From NCBI GenBank assembly GCA_004431415.1, contig QPMI01000503.1, positions 1-64,000 on the forward strand: a stretch of 64,000 bases of DNA. Direction: 5' to 3'. Position 1 is the stretch's first letter. Each line of letters starts with the position of its first letter. Made by a program: the position numbers and the translations under genes. The DNA comes from Cyanophora paradoxa CCMP329 (taxonomy: Eukaryota > Plantae > Glaucophyta). A model generated the notes under the pieces. The model ran no database searches, was not told where the DNA came from, and saw only the letters and a program-made list of their open reading frames with translations. Of the stretch, positions 1-20,461 are shown one piece after another.

Positions 1-272
1 CCTCGCCCTTTAACGACGGCGAGGTCAGCAGCGCCCTGGAGAGGATCTGCGACGCGCTGGGAATTAACTGGGAGCGCCTGACCGCGGAGGCGGCGGACGA
101 GGCCGCCGCGCCGAGTCGCTGGGCCAGTGAGGACACCAGCTCGGAGGAGATGACAGACGAAGAGGGAGACAGGGTGATTTACGTGGCGCGACCCGAGACG
201 ATTTTGCGACCTCGGAATCGGCTGCTCGGAGGGAGAGCAGAGGAGACCGAGGACGAGGACTCCGACGCCTAG
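1..272 (+). CDS. 3' end of a viral hypothetical protein with an acidic C-terminus
   Basis: Open frame from base 3, SPFNDGEVSSALERICDALG...EDEDSDA*, GC3-rich codons, stop just before the next gene's upstream motif. Confidence 0.55.
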   Translation, partial: SPFNDGEVSSALERICDALGINWERLTAEAADEAAAPSRWASEDTSSEEMTDEEGDRVIYVARPETILRPRNRLLGGRAEETEDEDSDA

Positions 273-306
273 GCGCGCCCCTTAAAATTTCCGAGGCGCT
301 AGGAAA

Positions 307-649
307 ATGTCAAAGGTGCTCCTAGGGCTCTCCCAGGCTATCGTGCAGTACGCCCTCGGCCTGGCATCCGGCTCCCTCATCGACGCCGCCTTCTCCTCGC
401 ACGAAGGCGAAAACAGGGCGGGCCACGCGCCGAGCTCGCCGCGCAAGTCGCCGTCAACGGCCTCTCCCTCGGCCTGCTCTCGAAATACGTGCTCACCCTC
501 AAGTTCTTCGACGACGACCCCACCGGCGAATTATGTTCATCCTCGGATTCACACACGGGCAGACGAACATGCTAATCAAGGCTACCAGCGCCAGCTTCGG
601 AATCAAGCAGGCGCTCGAGCGGAAGGCCGCCGCGATCACTAAAGAGTAG
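307..649 (+). CDS. Small hydrophobic viral protein, one frameshift near 430
   Basis: MSKVLLGLSQAIVQYALGLASGSLIDAAF continues in another frame as ELAAQVAVNGLSLGLLSKYV...DDDPTG...ITKE*; upstream motif present; stop abuts the VLTF3 stop. Confidence 0.55.
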
Positions 650-1609
650 CTAAAGAGTAGGAAAGAAATGCCAGTCGTTGTACTCGCAGATCCTGTTCCA
701 AATCGAATCTAACTCCGAGAGTTTCTGCCTGCTCTTGAGCAAGGGGAAAAAGGGGAGGTGCTGGGGCAAATCCAGCAGCACGAAAATCTGCCTGAAAACG
801 TAATTGTAGTTGAGCATGTTCTTCCTGCCCTGCGACTTGAACATGCTGAAGGGGACCTCCACCAGGGCGAACATCTCCTGCACCCGGTCCATGTCCTCCG
901 CGCTCATCGGAGGCGGGCGCTCGCCCGTGATGCGCCACTTGATCTGCGCCCAGCGCTCGATGTACTTCTGCTGCTTCAGAGCCCGGAGAACTTGGCGGAT
1001 ATTGTCTTTGCTCCACTCCTTCCCCGCCATGCGCCTCGCAGATAGCTGCCAGCACGTCCTCGGTACCGGAGAATCCTCCAGGCAGTGCTGCTTAAGTCGC
1101 TCGGAAACGTGGTACTTGCGCAGGTAGTTGCTGTGGAGCTCGCTGACAGCCAGGGGTTGATGGTCCGGATAATAAAGATCCAGGACCAGACCGCAGCCTT
1201 GGCAAACCAGATCCCCATCCAGGTGAACACCAACGAGGGCGGTAGAGCTGCAATTTCCGCAGGGGACAGCGGCTTCGCTTGGGGCCTTGGGTGCGGCGGT
1301 TGCGCTTGCGGGGGCGCTCTCCGGCCCCGAGGTAGGAGTTGGCGATGGCGGCGGCGGCGGCGGGGTACGGTGCCGGAGTGTCGAAGTCTGGGTCCCCCTC
1401 GTCGTGAAGGATGGCGCCGTAGCGCTGGATCTGCTCGAAGTTTCGGAGGAGGAGATCGATTTCGTTAGAGTCTGCCATTCCTCTGAGTCCTCGTACTGCA
1501 GCTGAGCTATTCCCCTGCAGAACCAACAGGTTGGCTTCTCAGAGGAGAGTGGGTCCCACTTGCAAGTGAGGAAGCACTTGTTGCAGAAGGCGTTGCTCAG
1601 GTGATTCAT
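650..1609 (-). CDS. VLTF3: Viral late transcription factor 3 (poxvirus A2/VLTF3-like) with Zn ribbon
   Basis: C-terminal RKNMLNYNYVFRQIFVLLD...FFPLLKSRQKLSELDSIWNRICEYNDWHFFPT is the typical VLTF3 signature; CGNC...CQGC ribbon upstream; true N-terminus uncertain. Confidence 0.9.
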   Translation of the reverse strand: MNHLSNAFCNKCFLTCKWDPLSSEKPTCWFCRGIAQLQYEDSEEWQTLTKSISSSETSSRSSATAPSFTTRGTQTSTLRHRTPPPPPPSPTPTSGPESAPASATAAPKAPSEAAVPCGNCSSTALVGVHLDGDLVCQGCGLVLDLYYPDHQPLAVSELHSNYLRKYHVSERLKQHCLEDSPVPRTCWQLSARRMAGKEWSKDNIRQVLRALKQQKYIERWAQIKWRITGERPPPMSAEDMDRVQEMFALVEVPFSMFKSQGRKNMLNYNYVFRQIFVLLDLPQHLPFFPLLKSRQKLSELDSIWNRICEYNDWHFFPTL

Positions 1610-1709
1610 GTGAGGCTCAGGTGATGCTCAGGTGAGGTGCGGACGTACCCCGGGGCCCCACGTGGAAGCTCACCCCAGCCTCGGAAAATTTTCTAGGCCT
1701 TGGTCTGAC

Positions 1710-2551
1710 ATGCTCAACCTCATCGCGAGGGGCGTGGCAGCAAACAGGCAAGCCCGGGCACCGAACCCTCACCTCCGCATGGACGCCTCCGGCCGCTCCC
1801 GGGTAGAGACGCACATCGTGGTGGGCAACATCAACGACAAGGTGCTGGCGCCCGACAAGACGTGGTTCCAGAAGGTGCTGGACGCGGCGCCCGTGAGGAA
1901 ACTGAACGGGGAGGATCGGCCGCAGCGCGAGTCGAATTTCATGATCACCATCCAGACCAACTACAAGCCGCGGAGCAGGGGAGAGGGCTCCAAGGTGCAG
2001 GACGCGTTTCACAGGGGGCTGGAGGCCCTCTTCTACGACGACAGGCAGCTGGCGCGGTGCATAAAGATGGGGGTGTACCCCGACAAGGCGAACCCCAAGG
2101 GCTTCGATTTCAAGTCCGACCAGTACGACACGCACGTGGAGAAGGGCAACGCGAACATCGGCATCGAGTACGGGCCGCGGTCGGGGCGGCTCCACGCGCA
2201 CATCCTGCTCACGCTGGTGCACTACTCGCGCGTGCAATTCGACGGCAAGAAGGCGTCGGATTTCCTCATCAAGTTCATGCAAACGGAGGGGCAGGCGGCC
2301 TGCCGAATTTCTACAAGGACGACTGGTTCGGGGAGGAGTACCAGAAGACGGCGGTGCGGCCGATACGGAGAAAGGACGCCCTCGGCATGCAGTGGACGGG
2401 CAAGGAGACGGGCTACAGGAAGCGAGAAACCGCCAGGCAGATGCACGTAGACGTAAAATTGCTGCCGCAGAGCAACCTTAAGGATCTGCTGCAGCTGTAC
2501 ATTACGAAGACGGTAGAGGCCCTCGAGACGGGCGCTGTAAAGCTCGTGTAA
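1710..2551 (+). CDS. HUH-superfamily (Rep-like) endonuclease 1, frameshift near 2290-2300
   Basis: Motif I-like NFMITIQTN, motif II EYG...LHAHILL, and motif III LYITK in the shifted frame ending at 2551; ATG 1710 follows AAATTTTCT. Confidence 0.75.
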
Positions 2552-2572
2552 ATTTTTTCTCGTGTCCAATAA

Positions 2573-4600
2573 ATGCCTCCGAAGCGCCGAGGCCGCAAGA
2601 AGAAGCCAGAGAGCTCGAGCGAGTCAGAGGAAGAGGAGCCCACGTCCCCGTCCTCCGAGTCGGAGGAAGAAGAGGAGGAAGAGGAAGAGGAGCCGGAGCC
2701 TAAGCCGAAGGGCAAGGGCAAGGGGAAGGGAAAGGGAAAGGCAAAGGGAAACGCGCCCGATACCGGCGTGGACGAGCTCGAGACGCCCGTCGTTGAGATT
2801 CCGAAGCGATACGTGCTGGTTCAGGGCGAGGACGGCATATTCCAGCAGCAGAAGAGCATATCCGATTACATCAAGCTCTCGGCCACCAAAGAAGTTCAGA
2901 TGCTCCCATCGCTGCTCGATAAATCATACCACGAGCCCGCGACCCTCTGGAGCATCCACAGCGAAATCGAGTACGATAAACTCCCCGAGGAGCGACTGCG
3001 CGCCATACCGCGCACGTACCAGAGCGCGCAGAAATCGCCGCCAATCTGCTACCGCTGCCTTCGCCTCATGTACGAAGCCACGCCCGTGCCGAGCGCCAAG
3101 GGGGCCAACACGCCAGAGAAAATCGCCGCGAGGGAGGCAGCGCAGGCGAGGAAGGATGCCGTGTACGAAGAGTACGTCGCGGTCATAGAGAAGGCAAACG
3201 CGTGGGCGGCCAAGCAAAACGGCAAGGGAAAGAAAAAGGGCCAGGAGCCGTACCCCTCATCAAGGACAAGAAGCCGGCGCAGGTGCCCACGGTGTCGCCC
3301 AGAAACTCGTGGCTCTGCCAGAAGTGCGTCACGCTGCTCGGCAACAAGGGCCTGCTCGTGATCTTGGGCCTGCAGAGGCGAAAGAGGGGCGACACGGCCA
3401 CCGTCTCCAAGCAGACGCGCGACCACATGGTCGAGAGCGTGCTCGGCGGGCCGAAGCCAAAGACCACGAAAAAGGCAAAGGATACGGCCGCTGACTTCGG
3501 ATCGTCCGTCATCGAGCCCAACTCTGCGCAGTCGAAAATCAGAAAGGCGAAAATCGTGGCGCCGAGCATGGAAGATTTAATGGCAACCTTCGCGGACGCG
3601 CAAGAGGTAAAGCAGAACATAGAGAAGGCGAAAACGGGACTGCAGGCGGCGCAGGCAAACGGGCTGGAGGCGCTCGAGAAGGTGATCACGGAAATCAGCG
3701 AGACGGGGCGGTCGGTCTTCATCCTCAACAAAAGAATCCCGACGGAAGCACGCGGTACGACATACGACAGGCGCGCCAGTCGCGCTACTGGGTGCTCTTC
3801 AACACCCACAAGCGCCTGGGAGAGGCGCGAGAATTCGAGGCGGCGGCGCTGCGCGACAGCCTCGCAGAGGTGCTCTCGGATGCAGAATTCTACAAGTTCA
3901 TACGCTTCAATATGAAGGAAGAGAACGGCAAGTACAAGGACGACACGTACGCCAACGCAATCATCGGAATTCGCGTGCAAGGGGGCGTGGAGGTGGGGCC
4001 GACGGACGGCGCGCTGCACGCCCACGTGCTGGTGACGATCGATCACATATCGAATTTGCAGGTGCTGTGGGCGAATTACGACTGGGTGGTGCTGCTGAAG
4101 GAGAAGGAGCCGAGCACCACGACGGTGTACGAGCGGCTGCACCAAATTCTGTCCGCGAAATTCACGGCGGCGGGCAGCGCCTCGTAGACCAGAAGAGGGC
4201 AGAGGCAGGGCCTCAACCGAGCATCGATACGATGGTGGAAATCGCAGAGCTCGAGCGCATGCTGACGGAAGAGAAGATAGGCATGGGGAAAGATCCGCCC
4301 ACCGTCCTTGCGTCGCTGATCCCAGAGGAAAATTACGCGAGCAAGCTGCAGGAGTACCTCTCAAAGACGCTGCCCGACAAGCAGAGGCGCGATTTACTGA
4401 AAGAGTGGTCGCACGCGCGAAACACGAACAACACCGACAACAACACGGACGGGTACCTCTTCACGATTTTCCAGGCGGACGCCGGCCAGGCGGACGATCC
4501 CCGCTTCGCGCCGCAGGCCGCGGAAATCGGCGACCTGAGGGCCAGGGGCCGAGGGCGCGGCAAAGGCAAGGGGCGCGGAAGGGGAAGGGGTAGCGGATAA
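2573..4600 (+). CDS. Long HUH endonuclease 2 with acidic/basic N-terminus and CxxC pairs; frameshifts near 3250, 3760 and 4170
   Basis: Joined frames give an NLS-like start, CYRC and CQKC, RYWVLFNTH (motif I), EVG...LHAHVLV (motif II), LQEYLSK (motif III) and an RG-rich tail. Confidence 0.65.
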
Positions 4601-4622
4601 TAAATCTGACGGGCCCGCGAAA

Positions 4623-4994
4623 ATGTTCCAGGGGGAATGCACCCACTCGGACATCATCACCGTCGTCTGCGGCGCGCTCTTCCTGGTCTCGGAGCTGCTG
4701 GGCGGCACGGAGCGCGTCGGCCCCAACACAGTGCTGGGCGCCCTGAAGGCGGCGGCCCTTAGGGTCGTCCGCCGCGGACAGCCCGAGCCCGAACCCCCAC
4801 CGGAGCAGCAGAGGCGCGAGAGCACGCAGAACATAGGGCCGCACCACGTCGACATTCAGATGACGCAAACCGGTACCCGTTTTTTTCTAGAGAACATGGG
4901 AAATGGAGACTCCCGCGACACCAGCCCCCAGCGCAGAGGCTCCAGCGCCCAGCAACTCCAGCAGCAGCACCGCGGCCTACCCTTGGCTTCTTAG
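4623..4994 (+). CDS. Small viral membrane protein
   Basis: Hydrophobic IITVVCGALFLVSELLG...PNTVLG segment; AAAATG start; true 3' end uncertain. Confidence 0.5.
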   Translation: MFQGECTHSDIITVVCGALFLVSELLGGTERVGPNTVLGALKAAALRVVRRGQPEPEPPPEQQRRESTQNIGPHHVDIQMTQTGTRFFLENMGNGDSRDTSPQRRGSSAQQLQQQHRGLPLAS

Positions 4995-5253
4995 GACTTA
5001 CGCGCGAAAGAAGCAGCAGCAGCCGAAGGCACCGGCGGAAATGGCGGCTGACCTGGATCGGTGCACCCGCCGCGCCATCGCGAGCTACGCCAAGCGCGTC
5101 GAGCAGTACCACCCCCAGATGGCAGAGGACGCCCGGGCGTACGCGAAGAACCCCGCCGCGAGCCCGCCCGTGATGGCCGCCGTCATCGACCGGCTGCAGT
5201 GGGCGCTGCACGAGGAGGGAGAGCGCGTCAGGAATTTCTTCATGCCCAAGTAA
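4903..5253 (+). CDS. Viral hypothetical protein
   Basis: ORF preceded by TTTTTTCT...AAATG; GC3-rich codons. Confidence 0.6.
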   Translation: METPATPAPSAEAPAPSNSSSSTAAYPWLLRTYARKKQQQPKAPAEMAADLDRCTRRAIASYAKRVEQYHPQMAEDARAYAKNPAASPPVMAAVIDRLQWALHEEGERVRNFFMPK

Positions 5254-5275
5254 ATTTCTGAATGGGCCCTTAACA

Positions 5276-5464
5276 ATGTCGTCCATGCTCCCGAGCCTCG
5301 ATGATATCACCAGCGATTCCCGCTACCTGGGCAGCCTGCTGACCCTCGGCGCGGTCGCCTACATGTCGCCCGCGCGCTACTACCTCGTGCGGATCCTCGC
5401 CGCGCAGTTCGCGGGCTACTACTTCGTGGGGCCCTACCTCCTCAACGGCCTGAGGAAGGCATAA
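5276..5464 (+). CDS. Small viral membrane peptide (62 aa)
   Basis: Two hydrophobic stretches; fits exactly between motif-bearing spacers. Confidence 0.6.
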   Translation: MSSMLPSLDDITSDSRYLGSLLTLGAVAYMSPARYYLVRILAAQFAGYYFVGPYLLNGLRKA

Positions 5465-5487
5465 TTTCTCAGGCCCCTTCCTAAATA

Positions 5488-5937
5488 ATGTCCTGCGTCA
5501 ACCTCTACGTCCAGTCGAACGGAGAGACGCAGGATTCCGAGGGCTTCTGGCGCCTCAGGCTGAACCAGATCCCCGCCGACATCGACACGCTGCAGATCAA
5601 GGGCGTCTACCTGGAGCTGGACACGACCGCGATTCCGGACCCCACCGCCGCGAAAACCGTCAACGTTCTGCTGATGGACGTGCCCGACTTGAACGTCACG
5701 ACCATCTCGAACGTCAACACGTGCATCAACAAGGTCGTGATCCCGACGTGGGGCCACGACGGCCTCGAGAACACCATCCTCTACTGGTTCGAGGTGCCCA
5801 TGGCCGTGCGCCCGAACTACGTCGCGTACGACAAGTTCCAGGAGCTGCGCGTGCGCTTCACCGACATCACGGGCGCCACCAAGAAGAACAACGCCTTCAT
5901 CGTCAAGAACTTCGGCCTCTGGGCCTTTGCGAAATAG
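5488..5937 (+). CDS. Beta-rich viral protein, possible minor virion protein
   Basis: 149-aa ORF with alternating hydrophobic pattern and strong codon bias; upstream motif. Confidence 0.6.
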   Translation: MSCVNLYVQSNGETQDSEGFWRLRLNQIPADIDTLQIKGVYLELDTTAIPDPTAAKTVNVLLMDVPDLNVTTISNVNTCINKVVIPTWGHDGLENTILYWFEVPMAVRPNYVAYDKFQELRVRFTDITGATKKNNAFIVKNFGLWAFAK

Positions 5938-5958
5938 ATTTTCGCAGGCCCCCCTTAA

Positions 5959-6435
5959 ATGCGCCTGATCATATTCCCGCGAAAGGGCTCGGGCGTCAAG
6001 ACGCGCACCTTTACGGGCGTGCCTGGCTACCCCTCGCCCCTCACTTACAGAGTCGATCTTGTAACCGCCTCTGGTCCAATTAAATACGGGCTGCTGCACA
6101 GCCTCAGTCACATCCGTCTCGGCGAGAGCGCATGGCAGGACTTGGCCTTAATCGTAGAATTCGAGTACAGGGGGGTAGACACGCTAACGGGCGAGCACGT
6201 TTACAGGGTACGGGTAGCAAGGGAGGGGTACTCGCTGCCGAACGGCACGGGCGGGGAATACTGGGAGCCGAAAATACGCGACGCCTCCGAGGCCTACCGC
6301 TGGCTGCGTGACGAGCAGATCACTATCAGGCCCGATTACCCCTACGCCGACGTTTTCTGGCAGGTGCCCGTGGGCCGTTGGACAACGGGCGAGGTGAGCG
6401 GCAAGCTGAAGTGGACGTGGGACGCGGAGCATTAG
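5959..6435 (+). CDS. Viral hypothetical beta-rich protein
   Basis: 158-aa ORF, TAAATG start, upstream ATTTTC. Confidence 0.6.
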   Translation: MRLIIFPRKGSGVKTRTFTGVPGYPSPLTYRVDLVTASGPIKYGLLHSLSHIRLGESAWQDLALIVEFEYRGVDTLTGEHVYRVRVAREGYSLPNGTGGEYWEPKIRDASEAYRWLRDEQITIRPDYPYADVFWQVPVGRWTTGEVSGKLKWTWDAEH

Positions 6436-6460
6436 TTAATTTTTCTCTCTCGCGGATAAA

Positions 6461-9400
6461 ATGTCGATGCTCGACGACCCCTGGCGCATGGCCATCCCGA
6501 ATCCGGACGAGGTGCTGAACGGCGCCTTCGCGATAGACGGGAGCCTGAGCGTGAGGGGAATTTACGCGGACGAGATAAGGCTGCGCAAGGGCGCGACCTA
6601 CAGCGATTTCCTGACGTCCGTCGGTACCTTGGACGATTACGGTGACCTCACCGCAATTATCAAGGGGCTCTGGGGCGTCACGACCGAGACGGGCGTGGAC
6701 TGGAACATTATTAAGAGGGCGGCCGACGTGAAAATCGCAAACTCCGTTACAGCGAAAGACGCCACCCTGAACCTCGTGAAACTGACTCTAAAGGGCGCAG
6801 AGGGGGACGTGAGGCCCGGGTACAACGCACTCGAGCGCATCGCGGGCCCCCTGCGCCACATCTACTGGAGCCGCCAGGCGCTGCCGAGCATGGAGCCCGA
6901 GCAGTACAGGCGCGACAGGGAGGAGTTTTTCGCGTGGTTCGACCACTTCAAGGTGAACATCCGCGCCCTGAGCGCCGACAGGACGGGCGAGACGCCGGAG
7001 ACGACGGGCGGGGGCCGCATCCCAACGGCACCCGACGTGCTCCCCGATCGCTCAGACTGGGCGAAGACGCAGAACTGGGCGCTGAAGGACCACTTCCACG
7101 ACGAGAGGTACGCCCTCGTCAAGCACCCGCATGTGAAGGCCGACATCACGGACTGGGCGCACCGCCACCTGTACGACGACATCATCGGCGGGCCCAAGGT
7201 GCCGGGCGCGATTCCGGGTGGGGGTACGGGCGGCGGAAGCACGGGAGGTGGGGGTACAGGCACCGGGGGTGGGGGTACAGGCACCGGGGGTGGGGGTACA
7301 GGCACGGGGGGCGGAGGGGGCTCCAGTGGCACGCCCGTGGGAGGGGGCGGGGGTAGCAGCGGCTCGGGTGGCGGCGGCTCGGGCGGAGAGAGCGGCGGAG
7401 GGGGTACGCTCGTGCCGATCCTTGGTACAACAACGGGAATCTTCGGCGCGGCCCTGATTGCAGGCGGTGCAAAGTACTACAGGGATCGGAAGGCGTACGA
7501 AAGGGACATTGCAGAGCTGCAGAAAGATAACAAAACGATCGTTTACTCAGACGAGCAGGTGAGAATACTGGCAGAGGAGCTGAAGACAAGGGAGCGGCAA
7601 TTTAACGAAATGAGGACAGCGGCCGAGAAAAAGATAGCGGACGATTTGAAAGAGGCGAGCGATAGAATTGAGAAATCCCTGGAGGCCGAGGAGAAAGCCG
7701 AGATCCGGAAGAGAGAGGCCGATAGGATCGTGGAAAACGCGATAAGGGAGGCAAAGGAGCAGGCAAGGACCGAGCTGGAGAAACTGGACATGGAAATAGC
7801 AAACAAGGTCAACATAGCAAACGAGGTCGAAGAGGGCACAAAGATGCTGGACGATGAGCGAAAGGCAGCGGAGGAGCAAGCCAGAAAAGCAAAGGAGGAT
7901 TTAAGGCAGCTCGAACTGCGAGAACAGGAGAGGCAGAAGGCAGAGGGGCTCGCATCCACCATACGATTCAACCTAGAGCAGCAAGTGAAAACGCTGACGG
8001 CCGAGCTGCAGAGGATAGGGACGGCTGTGCCAAGGGGCACAATGGAGACGCAGACGACGCCAAGGCCCGATCCAAGGCCGGCCGCCGAGAGGCTGCCCTT
8101 CGCGCGGCTGGGTAGGAGCGACCAGGTGGAAGAGCTCATTGGCCTCACGCTCGAGGATCAGAGGGCCCTCTTCGACGCGTTAGAGCAGCGGCGCAGGGCG
8201 GACGAGGAGGCAGCTGCCAAGACAGAAGAGGAACGACTGAAGGCAATGCAAACTGCATCAGACGAGGAATTTGCACGGCTGGAGGAGCCGAAGGTAGCGG
8301 AGCGTAAGCGACGACTGGAGACGTTCAGGGGGGCGCAGATGGATTTTTACCGCTCGGAGCTCAAAAGACTGAAAGAAGGAAATGCATCGGGGGACAGGCT
8401 CCGCGCCATGGAAGAGAACATGCGCGACTTTAGCTACGTTATGGATCAGCTGACGGGAAGGGGTCAGAAAGACGCCGAAGAACTGAGGAGAAAGATGGCC
8501 GATGAGAAGTGGAAAAACTTTGAGCGTCAGGCTGTTCAGAGGCCCATCAGCGATGCCATCTGGATAGCATACGGCGACGTGGAGGAGATGCACAGAGAAC
8601 TGCGGACGGAAGCGAGCCTGTGGCGGGGAGCCCTCGAATGGTCACTGTACCGGATACAAAAGGGGGAGTTTTTGGCAGAGCTGCGAGCCAATCCGAAAAC
8701 GGTGAGCGCGGGCGCACAGAGCGCGTACCTCTCCATGGTCGATTACGTGGGCAAGCTGAGCAAATTTTGGGAAATGCGAAGAGCCATCATTCCAGCGGAG
8801 GGGCTCGCGCAGTACGATGCCATGGTGCGCGATCTGGAGGCCTTCAAACGTGAGCACCCACCCGCCAAATACAAGATTCACATAGATACGACGGCATTCA
8901 TGGGCGATCTAAGGAAGAGAGGAGACGAGGCCAAGAGTCAGATCGAGGAGCGCTACAGAAAGGCCCAAGCGGACAAGGAGTACGCAAACAGGGTGATCGA
9001 AGAGCGGAAGCAGCAAGCCAAGGAGAACGCGGCGAGACGCAACGCCGAGATAGAAGAGCAGAGGCGGAAGATCGCAGAGCGCAAGGCGGCAGAGGAAGAG
9101 GCAAGAAAGACCAAGGTAGAGACAGAGTACCAAGCATTGAAACGGGAGGCCAATCAACTGTTAAAAAGGAGGGGAAGGGCCTACGCCGACGAGGGCGCGG
9201 GCGTGGGCTCGGCCAGCCCGGACGACATCACCCTCGCGGAAAGGGACGACGTTTCCGTAGAGGAAATGCGCCCGGGCACGGCTCGCCTGCCCTCCGAGGG
9301 CGTATTTCAGACGCTCGACAGGCGCGTGATGGGCGACTCGGACGTTATTCTGCGCAACGCCCTCATGCCCTACGGCGACTGGAACCGCGCCACCGCCGAC

Positions 9401-11572
9401 GCCCTTGCCGATTTCGACCTCGAGCGATTCACCACCAAAGAGCAGCGCGACGCCTTCCTGGGGCGCCCGAGGGCCAGGCGGCCCGGGGTGGCCAAGGAGG
9501 CCTTCAGCGCAGAGACCCTCTTCTCCGCGATGGGTACGGCGAACAACGACGGCATGTCTTTCGGGGCAGCCGATTTATTTCAGGGGGCGGGCATCGACTT
9601 GGTGGGCGCCGGGCTGGGGGGTACGGGCTCGCGGGCCATGCGGCGGGCGGGCGCGGCGGCGGCCGGCCTTGGGCTGGCGACGGCGGGCGGCCTGCTCTCG
9701 GCCTACCAGGCGCTCTCGCAGGGCAAGATAGGGGAGGCCGAGTTCTTCGATACGTTCCGCGATCAGATGATCATGACGGTCGGCTCTTTTGGCCTTCAGA
9801 CGGGCATGTCGTCCGCCCTGAGCGCCCTCACGAAAATGAGGATCGGCACGGTGGGCGGACTTGGCCTGTCCATCCTCGCGGGCGCCATCGCGCAGGTGAT
9901 CGTGGATATCATCAACGGGCGCAGCGCGGAAGAAATCGTGAAGAACTTTTTCAAGTACCCCGTCGACTGGGCGACCGACACCATACAGTTCATCGCGGAG
10001 CTCTCGCAACAGATCTACGACTGGGGCGTCGAGACGTGGGGCGACGAGGCGAGCCAGCTGCGCAACCGAATTAATCGGCTGGAGGGCGAGCTGGGCTCCG
10101 GATTTTTGGGTGTGTACGACCCCTCGGAGGCGCGCGAAATGGCCTCGCTCTTGGCCCAGGAGCTGCGGTTAAACGAAATCAAGGAGCCGAAGGAGCTGCA
10201 GGCCTTCATTCGCGCGCTCGACAACAGCATCAACGATTACCGTACCCCCAAGGACCAGAAGACCCTGCTCGAAATCGATCGCGCGACCGTGCTCTTCCTC
10301 TCCCAGCTCACCGTTAAAATGCAGGAGGGCTTCGGGTCGACTTCGCTCGCCCTGAGTCGACTTATGCGCGACCTGAAGCAGATGATAAAGGAGGAGACCA
10401 AGGGGCGGAAGCGCGTCTTAATTGCCGTCTACCAGGAGGGCCTCAACAGGATCAATCACATCGAAGCCCTAAGGCGCGAATTCGGCTCGGCCATCCGTCA
10501 CTCGGGCGTCTCGTCGAACGGAGGGGCGCAGGTGGCCCGCCTGGCGGACGCCAACTCGCGCCTCGAGATTCCCGGGACCTTCCGCATGCAGGATTGGTGG
10601 GAGGCCGAGGCCTTCAGGAATTACGGGGCCTTCATAGACAACGGGATCAATTCGCAGAGCCCCAAGGCAAACTGGCTGGTACCCAAGGCCTACGTCGATA
10701 AATTGGTTGACAGGCCTGCAGCACCATACACCAAGAAGATCGCCAAAGGCATCGAGTACTGGGCGCCCGAGCCAGGCCAGCCCGTGTTTGCATCGCAGAA
10801 CTACGAGTGGCACATGGCGCCGGGGGCGAGCCAGGCCGTGAGCACCGTGGGCGTTGCCGTGCCGCAGCTGGCGACGGTGGCACACACGGGGGCGTATGCA
10901 GATCTCAGCGGGAGGCCGACGATACCCGTGATACCAACAACGTGGGCGTGGGATAGCATCACGGGGAAGCCGAGTACGTATCCCCACGCAGACCACCAGC
11001 ACACCATCTCTCAGATCAGCGACTGGACGGCCCCGGACTTGACGAACATCTCCGTGGATTGGGACAACGTAACGGGCAAGCCACTTACCTTCCCCCCCTC
11101 TACACACAGTCACAATGTGTACTGGGATAATGTCATCGACCGACCCACTTCCTTCCCACCCTCTACGCACAGTCACACAGAGTACTCGCTCACCAGCCAC
11201 GGGCACAGAAACGTGAACATGGATGCGTACATAACGCACGGCACGTCCTTCCACTCCTACGCTGCGTACACGGAGTTTAACATCAATTCAACATACACGG
11301 TGACGTTCAACATTACATTCGGACAGGCGTACGACACTGGAGGCGGACTGGGGACCCCAGCAAACCCAACGCCGGTTATTAACGTAACCCCCTCGTTCGA
11401 CATCAATCCCGGCGGCAGCACGGATGTCGATTTCTACGGGGCCAACGTCACGGCGGTGAGTCACACTGGCTTTACAGTTAAAGTGAGATTCCAACCCAGA
11501 ATGACGGTCACGCCCACCCAAATTGTCCAGCTTTTTATTCATTGGACCGCGATCGGCAAGCTGCTTATGTAA
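6461..11572 (+). CDS. 1703-aa putative virion fibre / tape-measure-like protein
   Basis: Intact ORF with a Gly linker, long E/K/R/A coiled coil, hydrophobic Gly/Ala helices, KAYVD, LATVAHTGAYADLSGRP, three W(D)x(I/V)xx(K/R)P...HxH repeats, and a C-terminal ...TGFTV...HWTAIG fibre-tip-like domain. Confidence 0.75.
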   Translation: MSMLDDPWRMAIPNPDEVLNGAFAIDGSLSVRGIYADEIRLRKGATYSDFLTSVGTLDDYGDLTAIIKGLWGVTTETGVDWNIIKRAADVKIANSVTAKDATLNLVKLTLKGAEGDVRPGYNALERIAGPLRHIYWSRQALPSMEPEQYRRDREEFFAWFDHFKVNIRALSADRTGETPETTGGGRIPTAPDVLPDRSDWAKTQNWALKDHFHDERYALVKHPHVKADITDWAHRHLYDDIIGGPKVPGAIPGGGTGGGSTGGGGTGTGGGGTGTGGGGTGTGGGGGSSGTPVGGGGGSSGSGGGGSGGESGGGGTLVPILGTTTGIFGAALIAGGAKYYRDRKAYERDIAELQKDNKTIVYSDEQVRILAEELKTRERQFNEMRTAAEKKIADDLKEASDRIEKSLEAEEKAEIRKREADRIVENAIREAKEQARTELEKLDMEIANKVNIANEVEEGTKMLDDERKAAEEQARKAKEDLRQLELREQERQKAEGLASTIRFNLEQQVKTLTAELQRIGTAVPRGTMETQTTPRPDPRPAAERLPFARLGRSDQVEELIGLTLEDQRALFDALEQRRRADEEAAAKTEEERLKAMQTASDEEFARLEEPKVAERKRRLETFRGAQMDFYRSELKRLKEGNASGDRLRAMEENMRDFSYVMDQLTGRGQKDAEELRRKMADEKWKNFERQAVQRPISDAIWIAYGDVEEMHRELRTEASLWRGALEWSLYRIQKGEFLAELRANPKTVSAGAQSAYLSMVDYVGKLSKFWEMRRAIIPAEGLAQYDAMVRDLEAFKREHPPAKYKIHIDTTAFMGDLRKRGDEAKSQIEERYRKAQADKEYANRVIEERKQQAKENAARRNAEIEEQRRKIAERKAAEEEARKTKVETEYQALKREANQLLKRRGRAYADEGAGVGSASPDDITLAERDDVSVEEMRPGTARLPSEGVFQTLDRRVMGDSDVILRNALMPYGDWNRATADALADFDLERFTTKEQRDAFLGRPRARRPGVAKEAFSAETLFSAMGTANNDGMSFGAADLFQGAGIDLVGAGLGGTGSRAMRRAGAAAAGLGLATAGGLLSAYQALSQGKIGEAEFFDTFRDQMIMTVGSFGLQTGMSSALSALTKMRIGTVGGLGLSILAGAIAQVIVDIINGRSAEEIVKNFFKYPVDWATDTIQFIAELSQQIYDWGVETWGDEASQLRNRINRLEGELGSGFLGVYDPSEAREMASLLAQELRLNEIKEPKELQAFIRALDNSINDYRTPKDQKTLLEIDRATVLFLSQLTVKMQEGFGSTSLALSRLMRDLKQMIKEETKGRKRVLIAVYQEGLNRINHIEALRREFGSAIRHSGVSSNGGAQVARLADANSRLEIPGTFRMQDWWEAEAFRNYGAFIDNGINSQSPKANWLVPKAYVDKLVDRPAAPYTKKIAKGIEYWAPEPGQPVFASQNYEWHMAPGASQAVSTVGVAVPQLATVAHTGAYADLSGRPTIPVIPTTWAWDSITGKPSTYPHADHQHTISQISDWTAPDLTNISVDWDNVTGKPLTFPPSTHSHNVYWDNVIDRPTSFPPSTHSHTEYSLTSHGHRNVNMDAYITHGTSFHSYAAYTEFNINSTYTVTFNITFGQAYDTGGGLGTPANPTPVINVTPSFDINPGGSTDVDFYGANVTAVSHTGFTVKVRFQPRMTVTPTQIVQLFIHWTAIGKLLM

Positions 11573-11596
11573 TCGATTTTCTGATGCAATCCAAAA

Positions 11597-12664
11597 ATGT
11601 CGGTCGCTGTCCCTCTATTTACCTATGCTGCCAGCGTGAATCACAAGGGCGATCACACGATTAAGGAGACCACCCTCGGAAACCAGGCCACCGAGGCCCC
11701 CTACAACGCCACGGCCGTCCCCTTTTCCGAGGCCGACCTCGTCCGCGTCGGCGAGCTGCGCTGCGACAAGATGCGCACGCGGGAGGGCGGGTCGGCCGTG
11801 CCGGGGCGCGTGAGGACGCAGAGGCTCACCGTCACGAACGGGGCCTGGGACGGGAGCGGGTACACCACGAATCAGGTGACCTTTAATGGGACTGTGAACG
11901 GGGAGGGGAATGCGGCTCTGTATGTGCAAGGAGGCGGAGCAAACGTGGTGGGGGGGCTTAGGGTGAGCGGGGCTTCAAACTTGGCGGGCATCGTTACATT
12001 GGACGATAAGCTGCAAATTACCGGAACGTCACCGTACATAAATGGCGGTGGTTCAGGCGTAGCTATAAAGTACAACGAAAACGATAGACTCCTCTGTGGG
12101 ACTCTTGGCGTTGGTGTTACAGGTACTCTATTTACCTCGGCAATCGAAGGCCCTACTAATGGCCTAAGCATAGCAAACACTTCAATCGTTGATAGCGGAA
12201 GCGTCAGCGTCAGCTCTGGTCTATCCTTGAGAAACAACGGCACCGAACGACTGCTGTGCGGAACCGTCGGCGTTGGCATCACGGGTCGGCTCATCGTCTC
12301 GACGCTCACGGGCGATGGAAACCGAGCCGTTTATTCGGATGCTCAAGGATACCTGACAAACTCGTCGAGCGATAGCCGCCTGAAAGAAAATGTCGCGAGC
12401 ATGTCGGGCATTCTCCCTCTTCTGCTGCAGCTGAATCCCGTGTCGTTCACCTGGAAGAACACATCCTCGGGGGGTTCGAAAACGGATTACGGTCTCATCG
12501 CACAGGAAGTCCAAGGCGTCTTCCCGAGTCTCGTTTTCGAGAACGCGGATGGATTTCTCGGGGTAAACTACGACAGGCTCATTTCCCTGTCGTTGAAGGC
12601 AATTCAGGAACTTTCACAAGAAGTTCAAACTCTCAAAGACCAGGTAGCGGCACTGGCGAGCTGA
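11597..12664 (+). CDS. Fibre protein with C-terminal peptidase S74 intramolecular chaperone
   Basis: SSDSRLKENV...LNPVSFTWK...GLIAQEVQGVFPSLV...VNYDRL...KAIQEL followed by a coiled coil; duplicated RLLCGT(L/V)GVG(V/I)TG repeat. Confidence 0.9.
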   Translation: MSVAVPLFTYAASVNHKGDHTIKETTLGNQATEAPYNATAVPFSEADLVRVGELRCDKMRTREGGSAVPGRVRTQRLTVTNGAWDGSGYTTNQVTFNGTVNGEGNAALYVQGGGANVVGGLRVSGASNLAGIVTLDDKLQITGTSPYINGGGSGVAIKYNENDRLLCGTLGVGVTGTLFTSAIEGPTNGLSIANTSIVDSGSVSVSSGLSLRNNGTERLLCGTVGVGITGRLIVSTLTGDGNRAVYSDAQGYLTNSSSDSRLKENVASMSGILPLLLQLNPVSFTWKNTSSGGSKTDYGLIAQEVQGVFPSLVFENADGFLGVNYDRLISLSLKAIQELSQEVQTLKDQVAALAS

Positions 12665-12684
12665 TCTGGAACAACTAGGAATAA

Positions 12685-14816
12685 CTACACCGCGAGTATC
12701 ACAATTCGACCGTTGCCACCGTCGCTGAAAGACGAGCCACCGTTGCCGCCCCTACCAATGCCTGCTGCGTAGTGAGCGTCTCCGCTATTTCCTGCCACCT
12801 GGCCGGACCCAGGATACACCGTAGCATCCGTCAAGTTTCCTATGTAGCTCGAGCCACCGCCACCTCCAAACATTCTTGCTATTGGGTTCTCTGACACTCC
12901 GCTCCTGCTGGACCCAGAGCCTCCACCGAAGTAACCACCACCACCACCACCACCGAACCTGTAGCCGCTTGAATCAGGCCCAGTCTCTCCACCTTGGCGC
13001 AAAGTTCCCGGGTTGCTGGGCCTGGCCCCTGAGGCCACAACACCGGCTCCGCCAGCGGTTTGGGTGCCTCCTTGAGCCGGTATCTCTCCGGTTACTCCAA
13101 CCAACCCAGCCGCACCACCGGTCAACCCCCGCCTACTCCCCGCCGCCATTCGAATCACATGTACCCCACCTCCGGCCCCTGCAACAACCAAGTCGGTCCC
13201 TGCAACGCGCTGAATTGCAGAACGACCACCACCGGCGCCGTTTTTGTACTCCGGATCGACGCTATGGCTCCAGCCCCTTCCACCACCTCCGTAGACGGTA
13301 GCAGTGGCAGTCCCCGATACACCCTTTGGGCCGCCGCATCCAACAACAAGGATGAGCGTCTCCCCGAGGACACAGCCAATGTACCAACTACGCAAGCACC
13401 CGCGCCTCCACGGACCCCGTACCTGCGCGTTCTCCGCCTCCACCCCGGCCGCCCATACGATGACACGCACAGCCACAGTCCCCGTTGGTACTACGAAAGT
13501 CTGGTCGGCCCCGGTGTAGGAGAATGTACCCAAAACAGGAGCGTTTGCAGTTGTTGCACTGGCAGACGAGGACTGAGGGCCTTCCTCGCCGATCTGGTTG
13601 ACGCCCTTGATGGTGTAAGTGTAAGTGGTTCCGTAAACGGTCGTTGTGTCCGAAAAGGGGCTGCTCGTGTCGCTGGCAAGGAACACGCCACCCCTGTAGA
13701 TGTTGTAGGAGACGGTGACGCCCGTCACCGGCACCGACCACTCGAGCACAACAGGCTGTGCTGCCCCGCCGCGGGGTTGCAGTGAGCCCAGTGGGCGCCC
13801 CCGGGTCCGTGGTGACGTACGCCGCAATACTCTTCGGCCCTCCCCTCCCGTGTTCGTCGCGGAGATCTGGTACTCGTACCCTGTACCCCAGACGGTGGTC
13901 GTGTCGCTGTAGGAGTTGGTCGCGGAGTCTGTGAGGTAGGCCCCGTCTCTGTAAATCTTGTATCCCGTCGCTCCCGTGGACGCAGTCCAGCTGAGGCTGA
14001 CAGGCTGCTGCTGGTCGTTGGGTGCTGATGCCGTCACGTTCGTGGGGGCGTTTGGCATAGTCCAGACCAGGAGCGGATCGGACTTGTCGTATTCGACACC
14101 GCCCACGATGCCGGCCACCTGGTAAGAGTATTCCGTGCCCCACGTAAGAGCAGTGCTATCGTCAATGTACGAGGTAGACAGGGCACTGCTCGCAAATCCG
14201 ATTGGCGTACCGTTCCTGTAAATTCGAATCGAGTCCGCGCCCTCCATGGCCACCCAGTTGATTGTGACGACTATGGCGGGTTTCGGGAAGCCCGAAGACG
14301 CGGGGCCGCCCCCGGCAATAAAATCGCCGTAGGTCTGGGCCGTGGCGGTCGTGAGCGTGGTGTAGGCTTCGATCTGCGGGCTGAAGCCGCCTATGCCTTG
14401 GAAGAGAATGTAATTGCTCATGGCACCCTCGTGGGTGTAGAGAAGCGACTGTGCGTAGGTTGTGGGCGGGGCTTTGCCATCAGAGCCCGTGCTGCTGCTG
14501 CCCTGTTCGCGAACCGCCGCCACGCGGTAGAGTCGCTGGGCCCCAAACTAAAGGGAGAGTCCGTGTAGGTGACGGTTGGCGCATTCACCGTGGCCACGAG
14601 ATCCCAGGGGCCGTTGATGCTGGTCGCCCTGTACACCTTGTACTTGACGGCGTTGGTGACCGCGACCCAGTTCAGCTGAAAGCCGTACGTACTGTTCCCG
14701 TTGTTGAGCACGGAGCCCGATCGCACCTGGGGCCTGCCCACAGTCAGCGAGATCGGCTCCACGCCATACTGCGGAGCCTGCACCACCTGCTTTTTCACGA
14801 ATACGAAGCGGGGCAT
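12685..14816 (-). CDS. Fibronectin type III repeat + glycine-rich-domain protein, frameshifted
   Basis: About four FN3-like units (LSWTASTGATGYKIYRDG...SYSDT...YEYQISATN) followed by FSYTGADQTFVVP and GAGGG/GGGGGYFGGG motifs; ATG 14816 with upstream motif; frameshifts near 14540, 13830/13750 and 13430/13370. Confidence 0.8.
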
Positions 14817-14855
14817 TTTCCTCTACGATCCGAAAAAATATCTGCCCCGGGGTAA

Positions 14856-15535
14856 ATGACTTCCAACTGGTACCAGACCCTCAGCGGCTCACTTGACGTT
14901 GGCAACAACACCAAGGATTTCGCACGCATACCCTCCGGCAGTTACGTCGACGTCTTTCTGCAGAATCCCGTCGTGATTCAGGTCGTTCAGAACGCCTACG
15001 CCACGCCCAAGATTTATTCCTACCAGCTCTTCTTCGACCCTCTGAGCCTCAGCGCAGAGGTTATCGAGCTGCTGCACGAATCAGGACTCGTGAAAAAGGT
15101 GGCACCTGCCACGGCCACTGCCAACGTCTTGCGCTGTCTCGAGGTCAAGTTCAGGGAGACGGGGTACGGCCCCACCGTGAACCGGTACCCCAGTTCTTCG
15201 AATCTTCCGGGTACGGGAACTTACCAGATGAGGGGTACGCTCAAGGGCGACGTGCTCTTCACGAAATTCAATCCAAGTCCCGCGACCCTGGGGCCCTCTA
15301 CACGGGCGGCAACCCACGCGGCTCGACTCTACCCCGCTTCCCCTTCACCTTTTTCAGGTTCCAGGTCTTCCCCCTCTCCTACGCCGCCGACCAGCCCCAC
15401 TTCAGCACGGGCGCCAGCCTCTGCGCGGAGCTGCGTGAGTGCTCGATTTCCTACGCGTACGGCACCGACGCTGACTCTGTGCCTGGGGCCCGCGTCATGA
15501 ACATCGGTGGCGACATCACCCTCTTTCACGGATAA
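14856..15535 (+). CDS. Beta-rich viral protein, paralog A (frameshift near 15290)
   Basis: Shares QNPV, SGL(V/L)KK and LE(V/L)KF with the next ORF; the shifted frame gives NPR...PR.F...G.SLCAEL...PGA, restoring paralogy up to TAA at 15535. Confidence 0.7.
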
Positions 15536-15558
15536 TCTTTCTCATTTGAGGTCGCAAA

Positions 15559-16371
15559 ATGCCGACCACCTCGGCCACCATCGTGAAGACCGTGTCTGCC
15601 GGCTCGATCGTCCCCGATTTCTACGGCAACGCTGGGAACGTGGCCAACGCAGGGACGGACAAGGTGGAGTGGGACGGAAACTACGCCACCCCGCTCACCG
15701 TGAGGGTCCAGAATCCCGTCATGTTGCGCGTCACCTCCAACGATTTCGAGAATCCCGCCTCCTGCTCCGTGTACGTGTACTTTGACATCGACTCGGGCGT
15801 GAGCGCGGATGAGGCGGAGGCGCTCTGGCTCTCGGGCCTCCTGAAAAAGATAGAGCCCTCTGTGCCTGATCGGCCCGCCATTCGCGTGCTCGAACTCAAG
15901 TTCACCGCTAACACCGCCCTCACTCGCAAATTCGGGAATGGTGCGAATCCGAACATCAAAACGCATTTAGATGGCGCCCTCATCGATGCCACACACAAGA
16001 CCACGCAGGCCGTTCCCTTTGAGATGTACAACCTCTGGAAGATGACCGCAAAGGAGATGATGACGAATGCCACCACGGGCGGCGCCTCGGGTACCGATTA
16101 TTCATACGGCGCCTCGAATCCCCGTACCCAGGTCTGGCCCCGGCTCCTCTTCACGAAATTCACTTTCAAATTGTACAACAACATCGCCGGAATGCCTACC
16201 TCTGGAATGGTCGTGGGCTCTACCCTCATGGCCGAACTAATTGAGGCAGAGGCGGACTACACGACTGCGACTACCAACTCGACAGCGCCAGGCGCCGGAG
16301 CCGAAGTTTACGTGGCCTGGGAAACGGTCGGTCGCGAGTACGACACCAAGATTCACACCACTAGCGTCTAG
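15559..16371 (+). CDS. Beta-rich viral protein, paralog B
   Basis: Intact 270-aa ORF with AAAATG start, paralogous to 14856-15535. Confidence 0.75.
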   Translation: MPTTSATIVKTVSAGSIVPDFYGNAGNVANAGTDKVEWDGNYATPLTVRVQNPVMLRVTSNDFENPASCSVYVYFDIDSGVSADEAEALWLSGLLKKIEPSVPDRPAIRVLELKFTANTALTRKFGNGANPNIKTHLDGALIDATHKTTQAVPFEMYNLWKMTAKEMMTNATTGGASGTDYSYGASNPRTQVWPRLLFTKFTFKLYNNIAGMPTSGMVVGSTLMAELIEAEADYTTATTNSTAPGAGAEVYVAWETVGREYDTKIHTTSV

Positions 16372-16726
16372 ACTGGCTAAGCTGCATTAGCACCTGTGTC
16401 GCCTCCATCATCTCCCGAATCTCCTCGCTCTTCTCCTGTAAATTGGCGTACCCCCTCCTCTTCTTGCGAATCTCCGACATTGATGCCCAGCGCAGGTTCT
16501 CCCTCCTGTAGTCCAGCGGGTTGCCGTTGATGTGTTCCACGTAGCGTCCACGTGGCGACTTCCCGAGGATCAGCTGGGAGAGGTAGTGCTTGCGCCCTCC
16601 AAACGTCTTGCTCACCCTGTCCCTGTCCACTCTCCAGGGAAACTCCAAGGCACTCGGGGGTACGTCCGAGTTGACCAGGACGTTGTAGGCGACGTCTTGC
16701 GAGTCGGTGCACCGGAGCAGGGCCAT
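16361..16726 (-). CDS. HNH endonuclease-like protein (HNH_3 type)
   Basis: YLSQLILG...VEHINGNPLDYRRENLRWAS matches the DHINGNxxDNRxxNLR pattern with D>E and N>Y changes. Confidence 0.8.
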   Translation of the reverse strand: MALLRCTDSQDVAYNVLVNSDVPPSALEFPWRVDRDRVSKTFGGRKHYLSQLILGKSPRGRYVEHINGNPLDYRRENLRWASMSEIRKKRRGYANLQEKSEEIREMMEATQVLMQLSQSRR

Positions 16727-16747
16727 TTTGCCCTAGGTTCAGAAAAA

Positions 16748-16842
16748 CCTGGGACTTGGGACTTGGGACTTGGGACTTGGGACTTGGGACTTGGGACTTG
16801 GACTTGGGACTTGGGACTTGGACTTGGGACTTGGGAAGAGTT
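16748..16842 (+). repeat. CCT-(GGGACTT)x12-GGGAAGAGTT cassette A
   Basis: 10 full heptamers plus 2 lacking one G, 16751-16832. Confidence 0.95.
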
Positions 16843-17270
16843 GAAACCCAGGTCCCGGCCCAGACTTTCTCCAGGATCAGAAATTTGTCAGACAAGTCAG
16901 GTGAGTTTTTCTACCGACTTTTTTACTCCTACCACTCCTCATACTCTTTTTTACTCGTAGTCTTTTTTACTCGTAGTCTTTTTTACTCGTATCCCATCTC
17001 GTACCCTCCTTCTCTCGACATCTCACACGAAAACTCCTACCCTCTTCACATCCGTTTTCGGTTGCATACTCTCGTGAGCTTTCATGTCCAGTATCATGCT
17101 ACAAGTCGTACACCAGTTCAGACTCTACCTCGCTTGAAATCTCACCTGGAATGTCACCAGAAACGTCATATGCAGATTTCCGTACCCCTCTACATGTCTG
17201 CCCGGTGGTTAGGGACTTGGCGCGGCAAACTCTCAGATCCAGAGAGATTCTGGGCCCAGACCCTGAGTCT

Positions 17271-17332
17271 AACTCTTCCCAAGTCCCAAGTCCCAAGTCC
17301 CAAGTCCCAAGTCCCAAGTCCCAAGTCCCAGG
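17271..17332 (-). repeat. CCT-(GGGACTT)x7-GGGAAGAGTT cassette B, inverted relative to A
   Basis: AAGTCCC x7 at 17281-17329 with the same flanks. Confidence 0.95.
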
Positions 17333-19272: not shown

Positions 19273-19323
19273 TTTTCTCCCCGTCCGAAAATTTCCCCGC
19301 TTTTGGGTCCAGACTCTGATTCC

Positions 19324-19385
19324 AACTCTTCCCAAGTCCCAAGTCCCAAGTCCCAAGTCCCAAGTCCCAAGTCCCAAGTCCCAGG
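19324..19385 (-). repeat. CCT-(GGGACTT)x7-GGGAAGAGTT cassette C
   Basis: AAGTCCC x7 at 19334-19382 with the same flanks. Confidence 0.95.
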
Positions 19386-19516
19386 TCACATTTTTCTCCC
19401 ATTTCAGTCCGAGATTTTGCCCAAGTCCAAATCCGGGCCCGGGATTCGAACCCTCGTTTTCGGTCGATTTCACGCGTGAAAAACGCACTTTTCGGCCTTT
19501 TCCGATTTTTCCTTTC

Positions 19517-19682
19517 TCGCGATCGCAGAAATGCCCCCGATCTCGAAATCGCGATCGAAAATGGTCGCGATCGTGAGAAAGTCGCGATCACCAGGGTCGC
19601 GATCGGGTCGCGATCGCCGCGATCGCCAGCCTCGGAGGGGGTACCCCCACAGCTGTTGCGGCGGTTATAAGAACCTCCGCAA
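19517..19682. repeat. TCGCGATC cluster, GGGGGTACCCCC palindrome and 11-bp stem-loop
   Basis: Six TCGCGATC copies; palindrome 19637-19648; TTGCGGCGGTT-ATAAG-AACCTCCGCAA at 19656-19682. Confidence 0.85.
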
Positions 19683-19976
19683 TCCAAGCGTCACTTCCGA
19701 GTCTCGAGCTCTCGGAGTTGCCTTTTCGCGTTTGGCCCATTGATGGCCCTCTTATATAGATATAGAGAAATCACAAAATCTCCAGTATCTCGGGACCGAG
19801 TCCAGAATTCGAGCCGAGCTTTTGCAAACCGTTGAACGAGGGATGGTGCACAGCATCATAATGCATTTTTCAAATCGGCGGAGCCACTGGGCCAATTTTG
19901 CGTGCGCAATCCTCGATTTTCCCTCGCTTCTCCCCCCCCCCCCCCCCCCCCCCTGCCATACAAACCGAGTTGTAGG

Positions 19977-20461
19977 TAGGGTTGCCACTTACGGCGTAAG
20001 TCCCCCAAAACCCGCCGTAAGTGTAAGTGTAAGTGTAAGTGTAAGTCGTAAGTCCGCCGTAAGTCCGCCGTAAGTCGGCCAGAAACCACAGAAAACACTT
20101 CTCAATCTGCGAGTTAGATTGTCTTCAGTCTTTTTCTGTGTGTTTGGGAGTGAGGGGGGCTTGTTTAAGCAGTGAAAGTGCCATCCCAGGTAGACACCAT
20201 GACCACCGGAGGCCCATTCCGGGGTCTTCTCACCCCGTTCAGAGGCCTAAAAGCACGTCTGAATCGGTAAGATGTGCAAATCTACTCGATTTAGATCGAT
20301 TTTAACTTGAATCTACGCTCTTTTTGCCGCTCGCAGGGGGTATCCCCAGGGGGACTTACGACTTACGGCCGTAAGTCCCATCTCGGGGCACGTAAGTCGT
20401 AAGTCGGACTTACACTTACGGACTTACACGTAAGTCCCGTAAGTCGTAAGTGGCAACCCTA
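19977..20461. mobile_element. Non-autonomous hAT transposon (MITE), 485 bp
   Basis: Perfect 17-bp TIR TAGGGTTGCCACTTACG / CGTAAGTGGCAACCCTA; 8-bp TSD GTTGTAGG at 19969-19976 and 20462-20469; GTAAGT/ACTTAC subterminal repeats. Confidence 0.95.

Follow-up and report, generated by a model that had tools for sequence, protein, structure and literature searches.

The window analysed here, the first 64,000 nucleotides of contig QPMI01000503.1 of the glaucophyte Cyanophora paradoxa CCMP329 (assembly GCA_004431415.1), carries near its left end two adjacent genes for apparent HUH endonucleases of different size, referred to below as short HUH and long HUH. The genes and other features around them are as follows, in positions of the window.

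650..1478, minus strand: VLTF3-like late transcription factor gene, divergent from the short HUH gene and broken by assembly indels.
1710..2551, plus strand: short HUH endonuclease gene, 280 aa, with His162, His164, Tyr264 and Lys267; motifs FMITIQTN (1938-1961), LHAHIL (2190-2207) and YITK (2498-2509).
2552..2572, plus strand: spacer of 21 nt between the two HUH genes, one of seven spacers of 21-25 nt.
2573..4600, plus strand: long HUH gene, 676 aa, HUH domain with His483, His485, Tyr596 and Lys599; motifs YWVLFNTH (3786-3809), LHAHVL (4014-4031) and YLSK (4355-4366); two CxxC motifs (3047-3058 and 3316-3327), 90 aa apart.
4623..16371: remaining gene block of closely packed intron-less genes, with small membrane-type ORFs, fibre-like proteins and an FN3-repeat protein.
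16361..16726, minus strand: HNH endonuclease gene of the element (PF13392, E 2e-7), whose cluster comprises eight algal gene models.
16742..17332: non-coding stretch that has an array of a 7-nt unit at each end, the two in inverted orientation, and short direct repeats inside.
19301..19968: third array of the 7-nt unit and a CGCGAT-rich foldback stretch, from repeat analysis.

Three-frame translation of the window places the ATG of the short gene at 1710 and its stop at 2551, spread over two frames, and the ATG of the long gene at 2573 and its stop at 4600, in four segments that lie in different frames. Both proteins and their motifs I-III sit where a first-pass annotation, made from the sequence, had placed them. 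The charged N-terminus with CxxC pairs that it ascribed to the second protein is there as well, and its statement that neither protein has a fused helicase agrees with Pfam, which detects no helicase domain in either. In long HUH the basic/acidic N-terminus, which includes a putative NLS-like stretch, is followed by a helical linker, the HUH domain and a Gly-Arg-rich tail. The LHAH present in both proteins is a His-hydrophobic-His metal-binding motif, and the catalytic tyrosines of the YxxK motifs (Y264/K267 and Y596/K599) fall within predicted helices (256-279 and 586-600). The two HUH domains are paralogous, with a local alignment score of 103 (mean 31 and maximum 53 in 1000 shuffles) and an hhalign probability of 94.6 (E 6e-8). 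Pfam, PHROGs and PDB sequence searches recognised neither HUH protein. In the Atlas, the third match for the HUH query was a rolling-circle Rep cluster (0.91, weak), and the best match of the N-terminal part 75-300 of long HUH (0.82) was uninformative. Contigs of one sequencing run, which we guess to be RNA, cover parts of both HUH genes, and this speaks neither way on expression.

Motif III of both proteins had been described at first pass as hidden by frameshifts. This is true of the window, where motif III lies in another frame than motifs I and II, but not of the organism, in which short-read contigs contain the missing bases and gene models of other copies are intact. One single-base deficit lies in the short gene (2293/2294) and three lie in the long gene (at about 3256, 3732 and 4175), all four at short homopolymer runs. 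The extra base at 2293 is present in the assembled contigs of four of four short-read runs at full depth, a depth that is not a copy number. Over 2757-4652, the short-read contigs of two runs show 0 substitutions and exactly 3 gaps and those of a third run 1 + 2 gaps over two contigs, so that read-contig support for the three break places in the long gene is taken from gap counts, not from per-position rows. Gene model P0019 (280 aa) is identical to the window in residues 1-195 and again in 196-280, the window lacking one base at the join, and gene model P0063 (676 aa) matches it across the three breaks except at 3 of 676 residues. Motifs I-III stand together in one gene model in 11 of the 12 members of the short cluster and in 13 of the 17 members of two long clusters, some of them with predicted introns. 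The four frameshifts are assembly errors, not biology.

That the frameshifts are real, through programmed recoding or decay of this copy, is scarcely credible. Short-read contigs merge near-identical copies, and the sequence of a single locus could differ from their majority; however, the window's form at 2293 is found in none of the short-read contigs listed for the four runs, and four single-base losses that all fall at homopolymer runs are of a kind with the indels that pepper the neighbouring genes. One- or two-base indels occur elsewhere in 1-1300 (in VLTF3 at 1041, 1277 and 1280), and short-read contigs give at least 12 indel rows in 1-6500, which marks the whole stretch as error-rich. 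The published C. paradoxa assembly is described as PacBio-based in the available text of PMC6704402, which fits the type of error seen at the breaks. Programmed frameshifting was rejected because the breaks are homopolymer assembly errors. Spliced genes were also rejected: shorter models skip the breaks via predicted introns, and full-length models need none.

Relatives were recovered from IMG/VR with a second motif pattern made of the residues invariant between the short and long paralogues, which gave 12 loci, eight of them true homologues (profile E 5e-23 to 6e-17) and four chance matches. The 11 loci obtained earlier with another motif pattern were chance matches throughout, and no relatives came from protein-seeded scans of IMG/VR (with a window piece, A1, A3 and the VLTF3 alignment A4), metagenomes, prokaryote genomes and phage records. 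The gamadvirus HUH profile matches the window with E 1e-25 and 3e-21. Short HUH is followed by long HUH in three of the eight loci (L013, L017 and L021), where the long protein has 1637-1758 aa and a C-terminal HUH domain. VLTF3 is present in five of the eight; the VLTF3 of the window, recognised by Pfam PF04947 (E 4e-23, and E 3e-24 on the intact model P0084), is 35-39% identical to these five and matches the gamadvirus VLTF3 profile with E 3e-45.

We aligned 17 HUH domains, 8 short and 3 long from the loci and 4 + 2 from the algal group, and found both histidines, the tyrosine and the lysine invariant in 17 of 17. In a domain tree drawn with no outgroup the sequences form four groups, and short joins short and long joins long at 86/84; a tree in which the algal pair is held together, as expected from an independent duplication, was not rejected (p-AU 0.14). 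The homology to gamadvirus-type HUH, the invariant catalytic residues and the neighbouring VLTF3 uphold the first-pass view of the two proteins as HUH endonucleases of a eukaryotic double-stranded DNA virus, and we regard the identification of the pair, taken by itself, as close to certain. A stand-alone transposon was rejected. An HUH transposon of the IS200/IS605 or Helitron type, which would be expected to have subterminal hairpins, defined ends and a target motif but no virion genes, is less likely, as the VLTF3 and fibre genes in the context argue for a virus.

The combination of a short and a long gene is an arrangement already published as the HUH and HUH_long of 'Gamadviridae' (Mriyaviricetes; Pleurochrysis endemic viruses), as far as the available parts of PMC11253617 describe it. 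The two share a short and a long HUH gene side by side in the same orientation, a C-terminal HUH domain in the long protein, the same motif I-III context and a VLTF3 in the genome. Neither has a fused helicase, which is normal for mriyaviruses because their helicases are encoded separately (PMC11253617). According to the same source, HUH occurs in all mriyaviruses and HUH_long in gamadviruses, and the mriyaviruses have no polymerase and encode a RuvC-like resolvase. In contrast to 'Gamadviridae', identity is only 24-33%, the long protein has 676 aa instead of 1637-1758 aa, and the host is a glaucophyte and not a haptophyte. The CxxC pair of the long protein has a spacing of 177-193 aa in gamadviruses and of 90 here, and the N-terminal regions do not align. 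Gene order differs too: VLTF3 directly adjoins short HUH upstream in the window, whereas 8.5-9.3 kb of conserved genes separate the two in L012, L016 and L021. HUH and VLTF3 are the only gene clusters, of 25 shared among the eight loci, to match 1-16.7 kb of the window; the other 23 gave no match there, with shallow profiles and a partial element. Membership of the element in Mriyaviricetes is likely, and we leave the element outside 'Gamadviridae', as what appears to be a divergent lineage with another gene order.

The viral genes of the window are followed by repeats, a MITE-like element and host genes, from which we conclude that a viral element has integrated here and that its right 19.7 kb lie in the window. 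No capsid, packaging ATPase or helicase gene was found in the window, the element extending to the left of base 1, and in its visible 19.7 kb no SF3/SF2 helicase, RuvC, VLTF2 or Mriya_48/50/51 was recognised, genes expected of a mriyavirus along with a total size of 35-45 kb. Seven spacers, at junctions within 2551-11597 and selected by eye, begin T-rich and turn A-rich ahead of the ATG, in many cases with GGCCC as a core: TTTY occurs at most 10 nt from the stop in six of seven (background 3%), and at least two A precede the ATG in seven of seven (background 13%). These spacers are likely to be a viral terminator/late promoter unit, judging by their composition.

Copies of genes of the block recur on the labelled contigs that carry HUH genes. 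Within 6461-12664, a 1703-aa fibre-like protein carries, towards its C-terminus, repeats that resemble those of phage minor tails, and a second fibre-like protein, of 355 aa, has a Peptidase_S74 chaperone domain; the FN3-repeat protein is encoded on the minus strand. A 149-aa ORF between 4623 and 16371 may, by resemblance, encode a minor capsid protein. Two adjacent related ORFs of 214 and 270 aa at 14856-16371 belong to no family, and short DNA matches suggest a tandem duplication. Rfam gave 0 matches in 1-16.7 kb. The non-coding stretch 16742..17332 is a candidate origin, and 19301..19968 probably holds the right end of the element. The 7-nt unit has a G-run and forms three arrays, of which two stand in inverted orientation on either side of 400 nt of non-coding DNA, and 17248-17332 recurs at 19301-19385 (94%); the arrays could be iterons or could form G-quadruplexes. 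The observed/expected ratio of CpG is 1.06 in the element versus 0.96-1.10 in the flank, and no depletion marks the element.

The element is multi-copy in the algal genome. A homologue search with the short gene found 18 proteins, 16 of them gene models of one eukaryote and 2 environmental (69% and 57% identity), and the search with the long gene found 10, all from the same eukaryote. Among contigs labelled Cyanophora paradoxa, 30 carry short HUH, 24 long HUH, 36 either, 18 both, and 10 both together with VLTF3; these are label counts, some of which may be assembly duplicates and one the window's own locus. The short variants are 95-98% identical, and long HUH has two algal variants that are 70% identical. 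At 2361 and 1365, short-read contigs depart from the window for at least 255 letters, pointing to insertions or divergent variants in other copies. Environmental relatives with 57-76% identity are P0006 and P0071 (ENA), P0009 (JGI) and P0073 (Logan), which indicates that the lineage also occurs away from the alga in culture; P0006 and P0071, both on 3639-nt contigs, may be neighbours.

Viral sequences have been noted in this alga before. The available texts report methylated viral regions (PMC12344493), 366 capsid matches of two groups (PMC10120064) and, in a single mention, a PLV of C. paradoxa (PMC12220804); the five example capsid contigs of PMC10120064 are not among the HUH-bearing labels. 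Mriyaviricetes-related insertions have been reported in a Glaucocystophyceae assembly (10.1101/2025.04.19.649669), the same virus class in the same host group, in a text that, as available, names neither HUH nor Cyanophora; these insertions are likely to be the element family of the window. Cyanophora is absent from the supplements of PMC11253617, and our literature search, which left most subscription papers outside, found no description of this HUH pair in a glaucophyte. The closest parallel in composition is Phaglo-G, described as an algal genome resident of ~61% GC with flanking short tandem repeats (10.1101/2022.07.28.501842), to which the 60% GC of our element and its 7-nt arrays near the end may be compared; in contrast, Phaglo-G has a haptophyte host and is scored with HUH_long only (Table S1, PMC11253617). 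The Zoravirus (VC102) and VC218 polinton-like groups are small mriyavirus-related genomes, some with HUH, for which RVE or YR integrases are described and a HUH duplication or VLTF3 is unstated in the available text (10.64898/2026.06.19.733378).

Structure prediction yielded weak models, with a mean pLDDT of 51.6 for the short and 43.6 for the long protein. Against predicted viral structures each model had one significant match (E 8e-10 and 3e-8), and the two models share it: a 793-residue piece of a long protein. This BFVD entry, A0A2H4YB87, may be HUH_long of Pleurochrysis virus KY346835. The assignment fits by length (793-residue second piece; domain 1353-1574 in PMC11253617). The first-pass annotation had proposed a Foldseek comparison of the frame-corrected proteins, and the outcome was divided. 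The order of elements in the short model, beta-alpha-beta-beta-alpha-beta-alpha with the tyrosine in the last helix, fits HUH, but no solved structure matched below E 0.001, SIRV1 ORF119 standing at rank 34. When the candidates were realigned, IS200/IS605 HUH transposases took ranks 1, 2, 3 and 5 (Z 6.1-6.5), the best with Z 6.5, rmsd 4.6 and 127 aligned residues, but unrelated ferredoxin-like folds tied with them at Z 6.1. The modelled fold is consistent with HUH, and the sequence evidence is stronger than the structural. SIRV1 ORF119 Rep (PDB 2X3G) and IS200/IS605 TnpA resemble our proteins as single-tyrosine HUH enzymes without a helicase, with a weak structural match; in contrast, they come from an archaeal virus and prokaryotic insertion sequences, and are much shorter.

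Our favoured reading, which we consider probable, is that the pair belongs to a gamadvirus-like virus that is multi-copy in the glaucophyte, is intact barring the four assembly errors, and is likely to encode nick-and-join replication initiators. Rolling-circle initiation with a host polymerase has been proposed for mriyaviruses in the available parts of PMC11253617; the nicking-based replication suggested at first pass agrees with that hypothesis, although the first pass had not recognised the short and long pair as one already described. By analogy with established HUH chemistry, the His pair would bind a divalent metal, and the YxxK tyrosine would cut one strand at the origin and remain bound to its 5' end. 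In the nucleus, a host polymerase would then extend the free 3'-OH, together with a helicase from a separate gene, and a second cut-and-join would free unit genomes. More speculatively, the long protein might add a zinc-bound, basic DNA-binding or targeting region and share the work, for instance in termination or on the second strand, and one of the two stretches bounded by repeats, 16.7-17.3 or 19.3-19.7 kb, might contain the origin.

Rolling-circle replication of mriyaviruses rests on motif conservation, and how viruses with no reported integrase enter host genomes is at issue. A rather doubtful reading is that of a separate glaucophyte-infecting mriyavirus lineage without an integrase, in which short and long HUH form a TnpA-like nick-and-join machine for replication, insertion and excision. 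If true, HUH-driven integration would have its first case in Nucleocytoviricota, and a cultured alga would carry dozens of near-identical copies that might be inducible. It is also unlikely that the pair, or the long protein, is an integrase or excisase that acts on single-stranded ends like IS200/IS605 TnpA or AAV Rep, perhaps besides replication; the first pass had raised a possible integration route as well. Such an activity would explain the many insertions, 36 labelled contigs carrying a short or long HUH model, and integration genes are reported absent from mriyaviruses in the available text of 10.64898/2026.06.19.733378; moreover, a scan of viral ORFs in the window detected neither an integrase nor a tyrosine recombinase. 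However, the left part of the element, outside the window, may hold an integrase, and the TnpA proteins that head the structural matches do not stand clear of the background. Environmental gamadvirus contigs carry the same pair, and insertions of Nucleocytoviricota have been read as mainly accidental (10.1101/2025.04.19.649669, available text).

Quite unlikely, in our judgement, is a linear genome with hairpin or repeat ends at which HUH nicks and reseals by a flip-flop, with no rolling circle. The precedent is the rudivirus protein ORF119, named as the closest solved relative of the mriyavirus HUH family (PMC11253617) and said to act by this mechanism on closed linear genomes (PMC4187194), both in partly available texts; the foldback and tandem-repeat DNA at the right end of the element and the RuvC-like resolvase of mriyaviruses (PMC11253617) would suit it too. 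Against this, direct terminal repeats in several Yaraviridae contigs indicate circular or terminally redundant genomes, in the parts of PMC11253617 available, and the left end of our element is outside the window.

A very improbable reading makes the short protein the sole enzyme and the long one a diverged, non-essential or structural paralogue. The long HUH domain does sit on the longest branch of the tree, long HUH was found in only three of eight loci (some of them cut short), and Table S1 of PMC11253617 scores HUH_long as missing from 6 of the 20 gamadvirus rows that precede Phaglo_G; however, neither algal long variant, and none of the three gamadvirus long proteins, has lost the two histidines, the tyrosine or the lysine.

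The short and long HUH arrangement is now known from one more lineage, which is divergent and has its genes in another order. The value of the finding is mainly practical, in that many copies in a cultured alga make questions of replication and integration testable: intact genes on at least 36 contigs offer many junctions for comparison in a host in which induction can be tried, and the 676-aa long HUH is compact and easier to express than the versions of 1,600-1,750 aa.

To the right of the viral element, a host-type MITE-like element at 19977-20461 has 10-nt terminal inverted repeats and an 8-nt target duplication, and its end motif is found again at 20580 and 23326. From 23.9 kb onwards the genes belong to the host (P-type ATPase, Tfb2, shikimate kinase and SNO). 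The SNO/Pdx2 glutamine amidotransferase ORF at 37054-37701 has no introns among intron-rich host genes and is possibly of bacterial origin, and at 43300-50200 the host part reaches 74-78% GC with long proline-rich ORFs.
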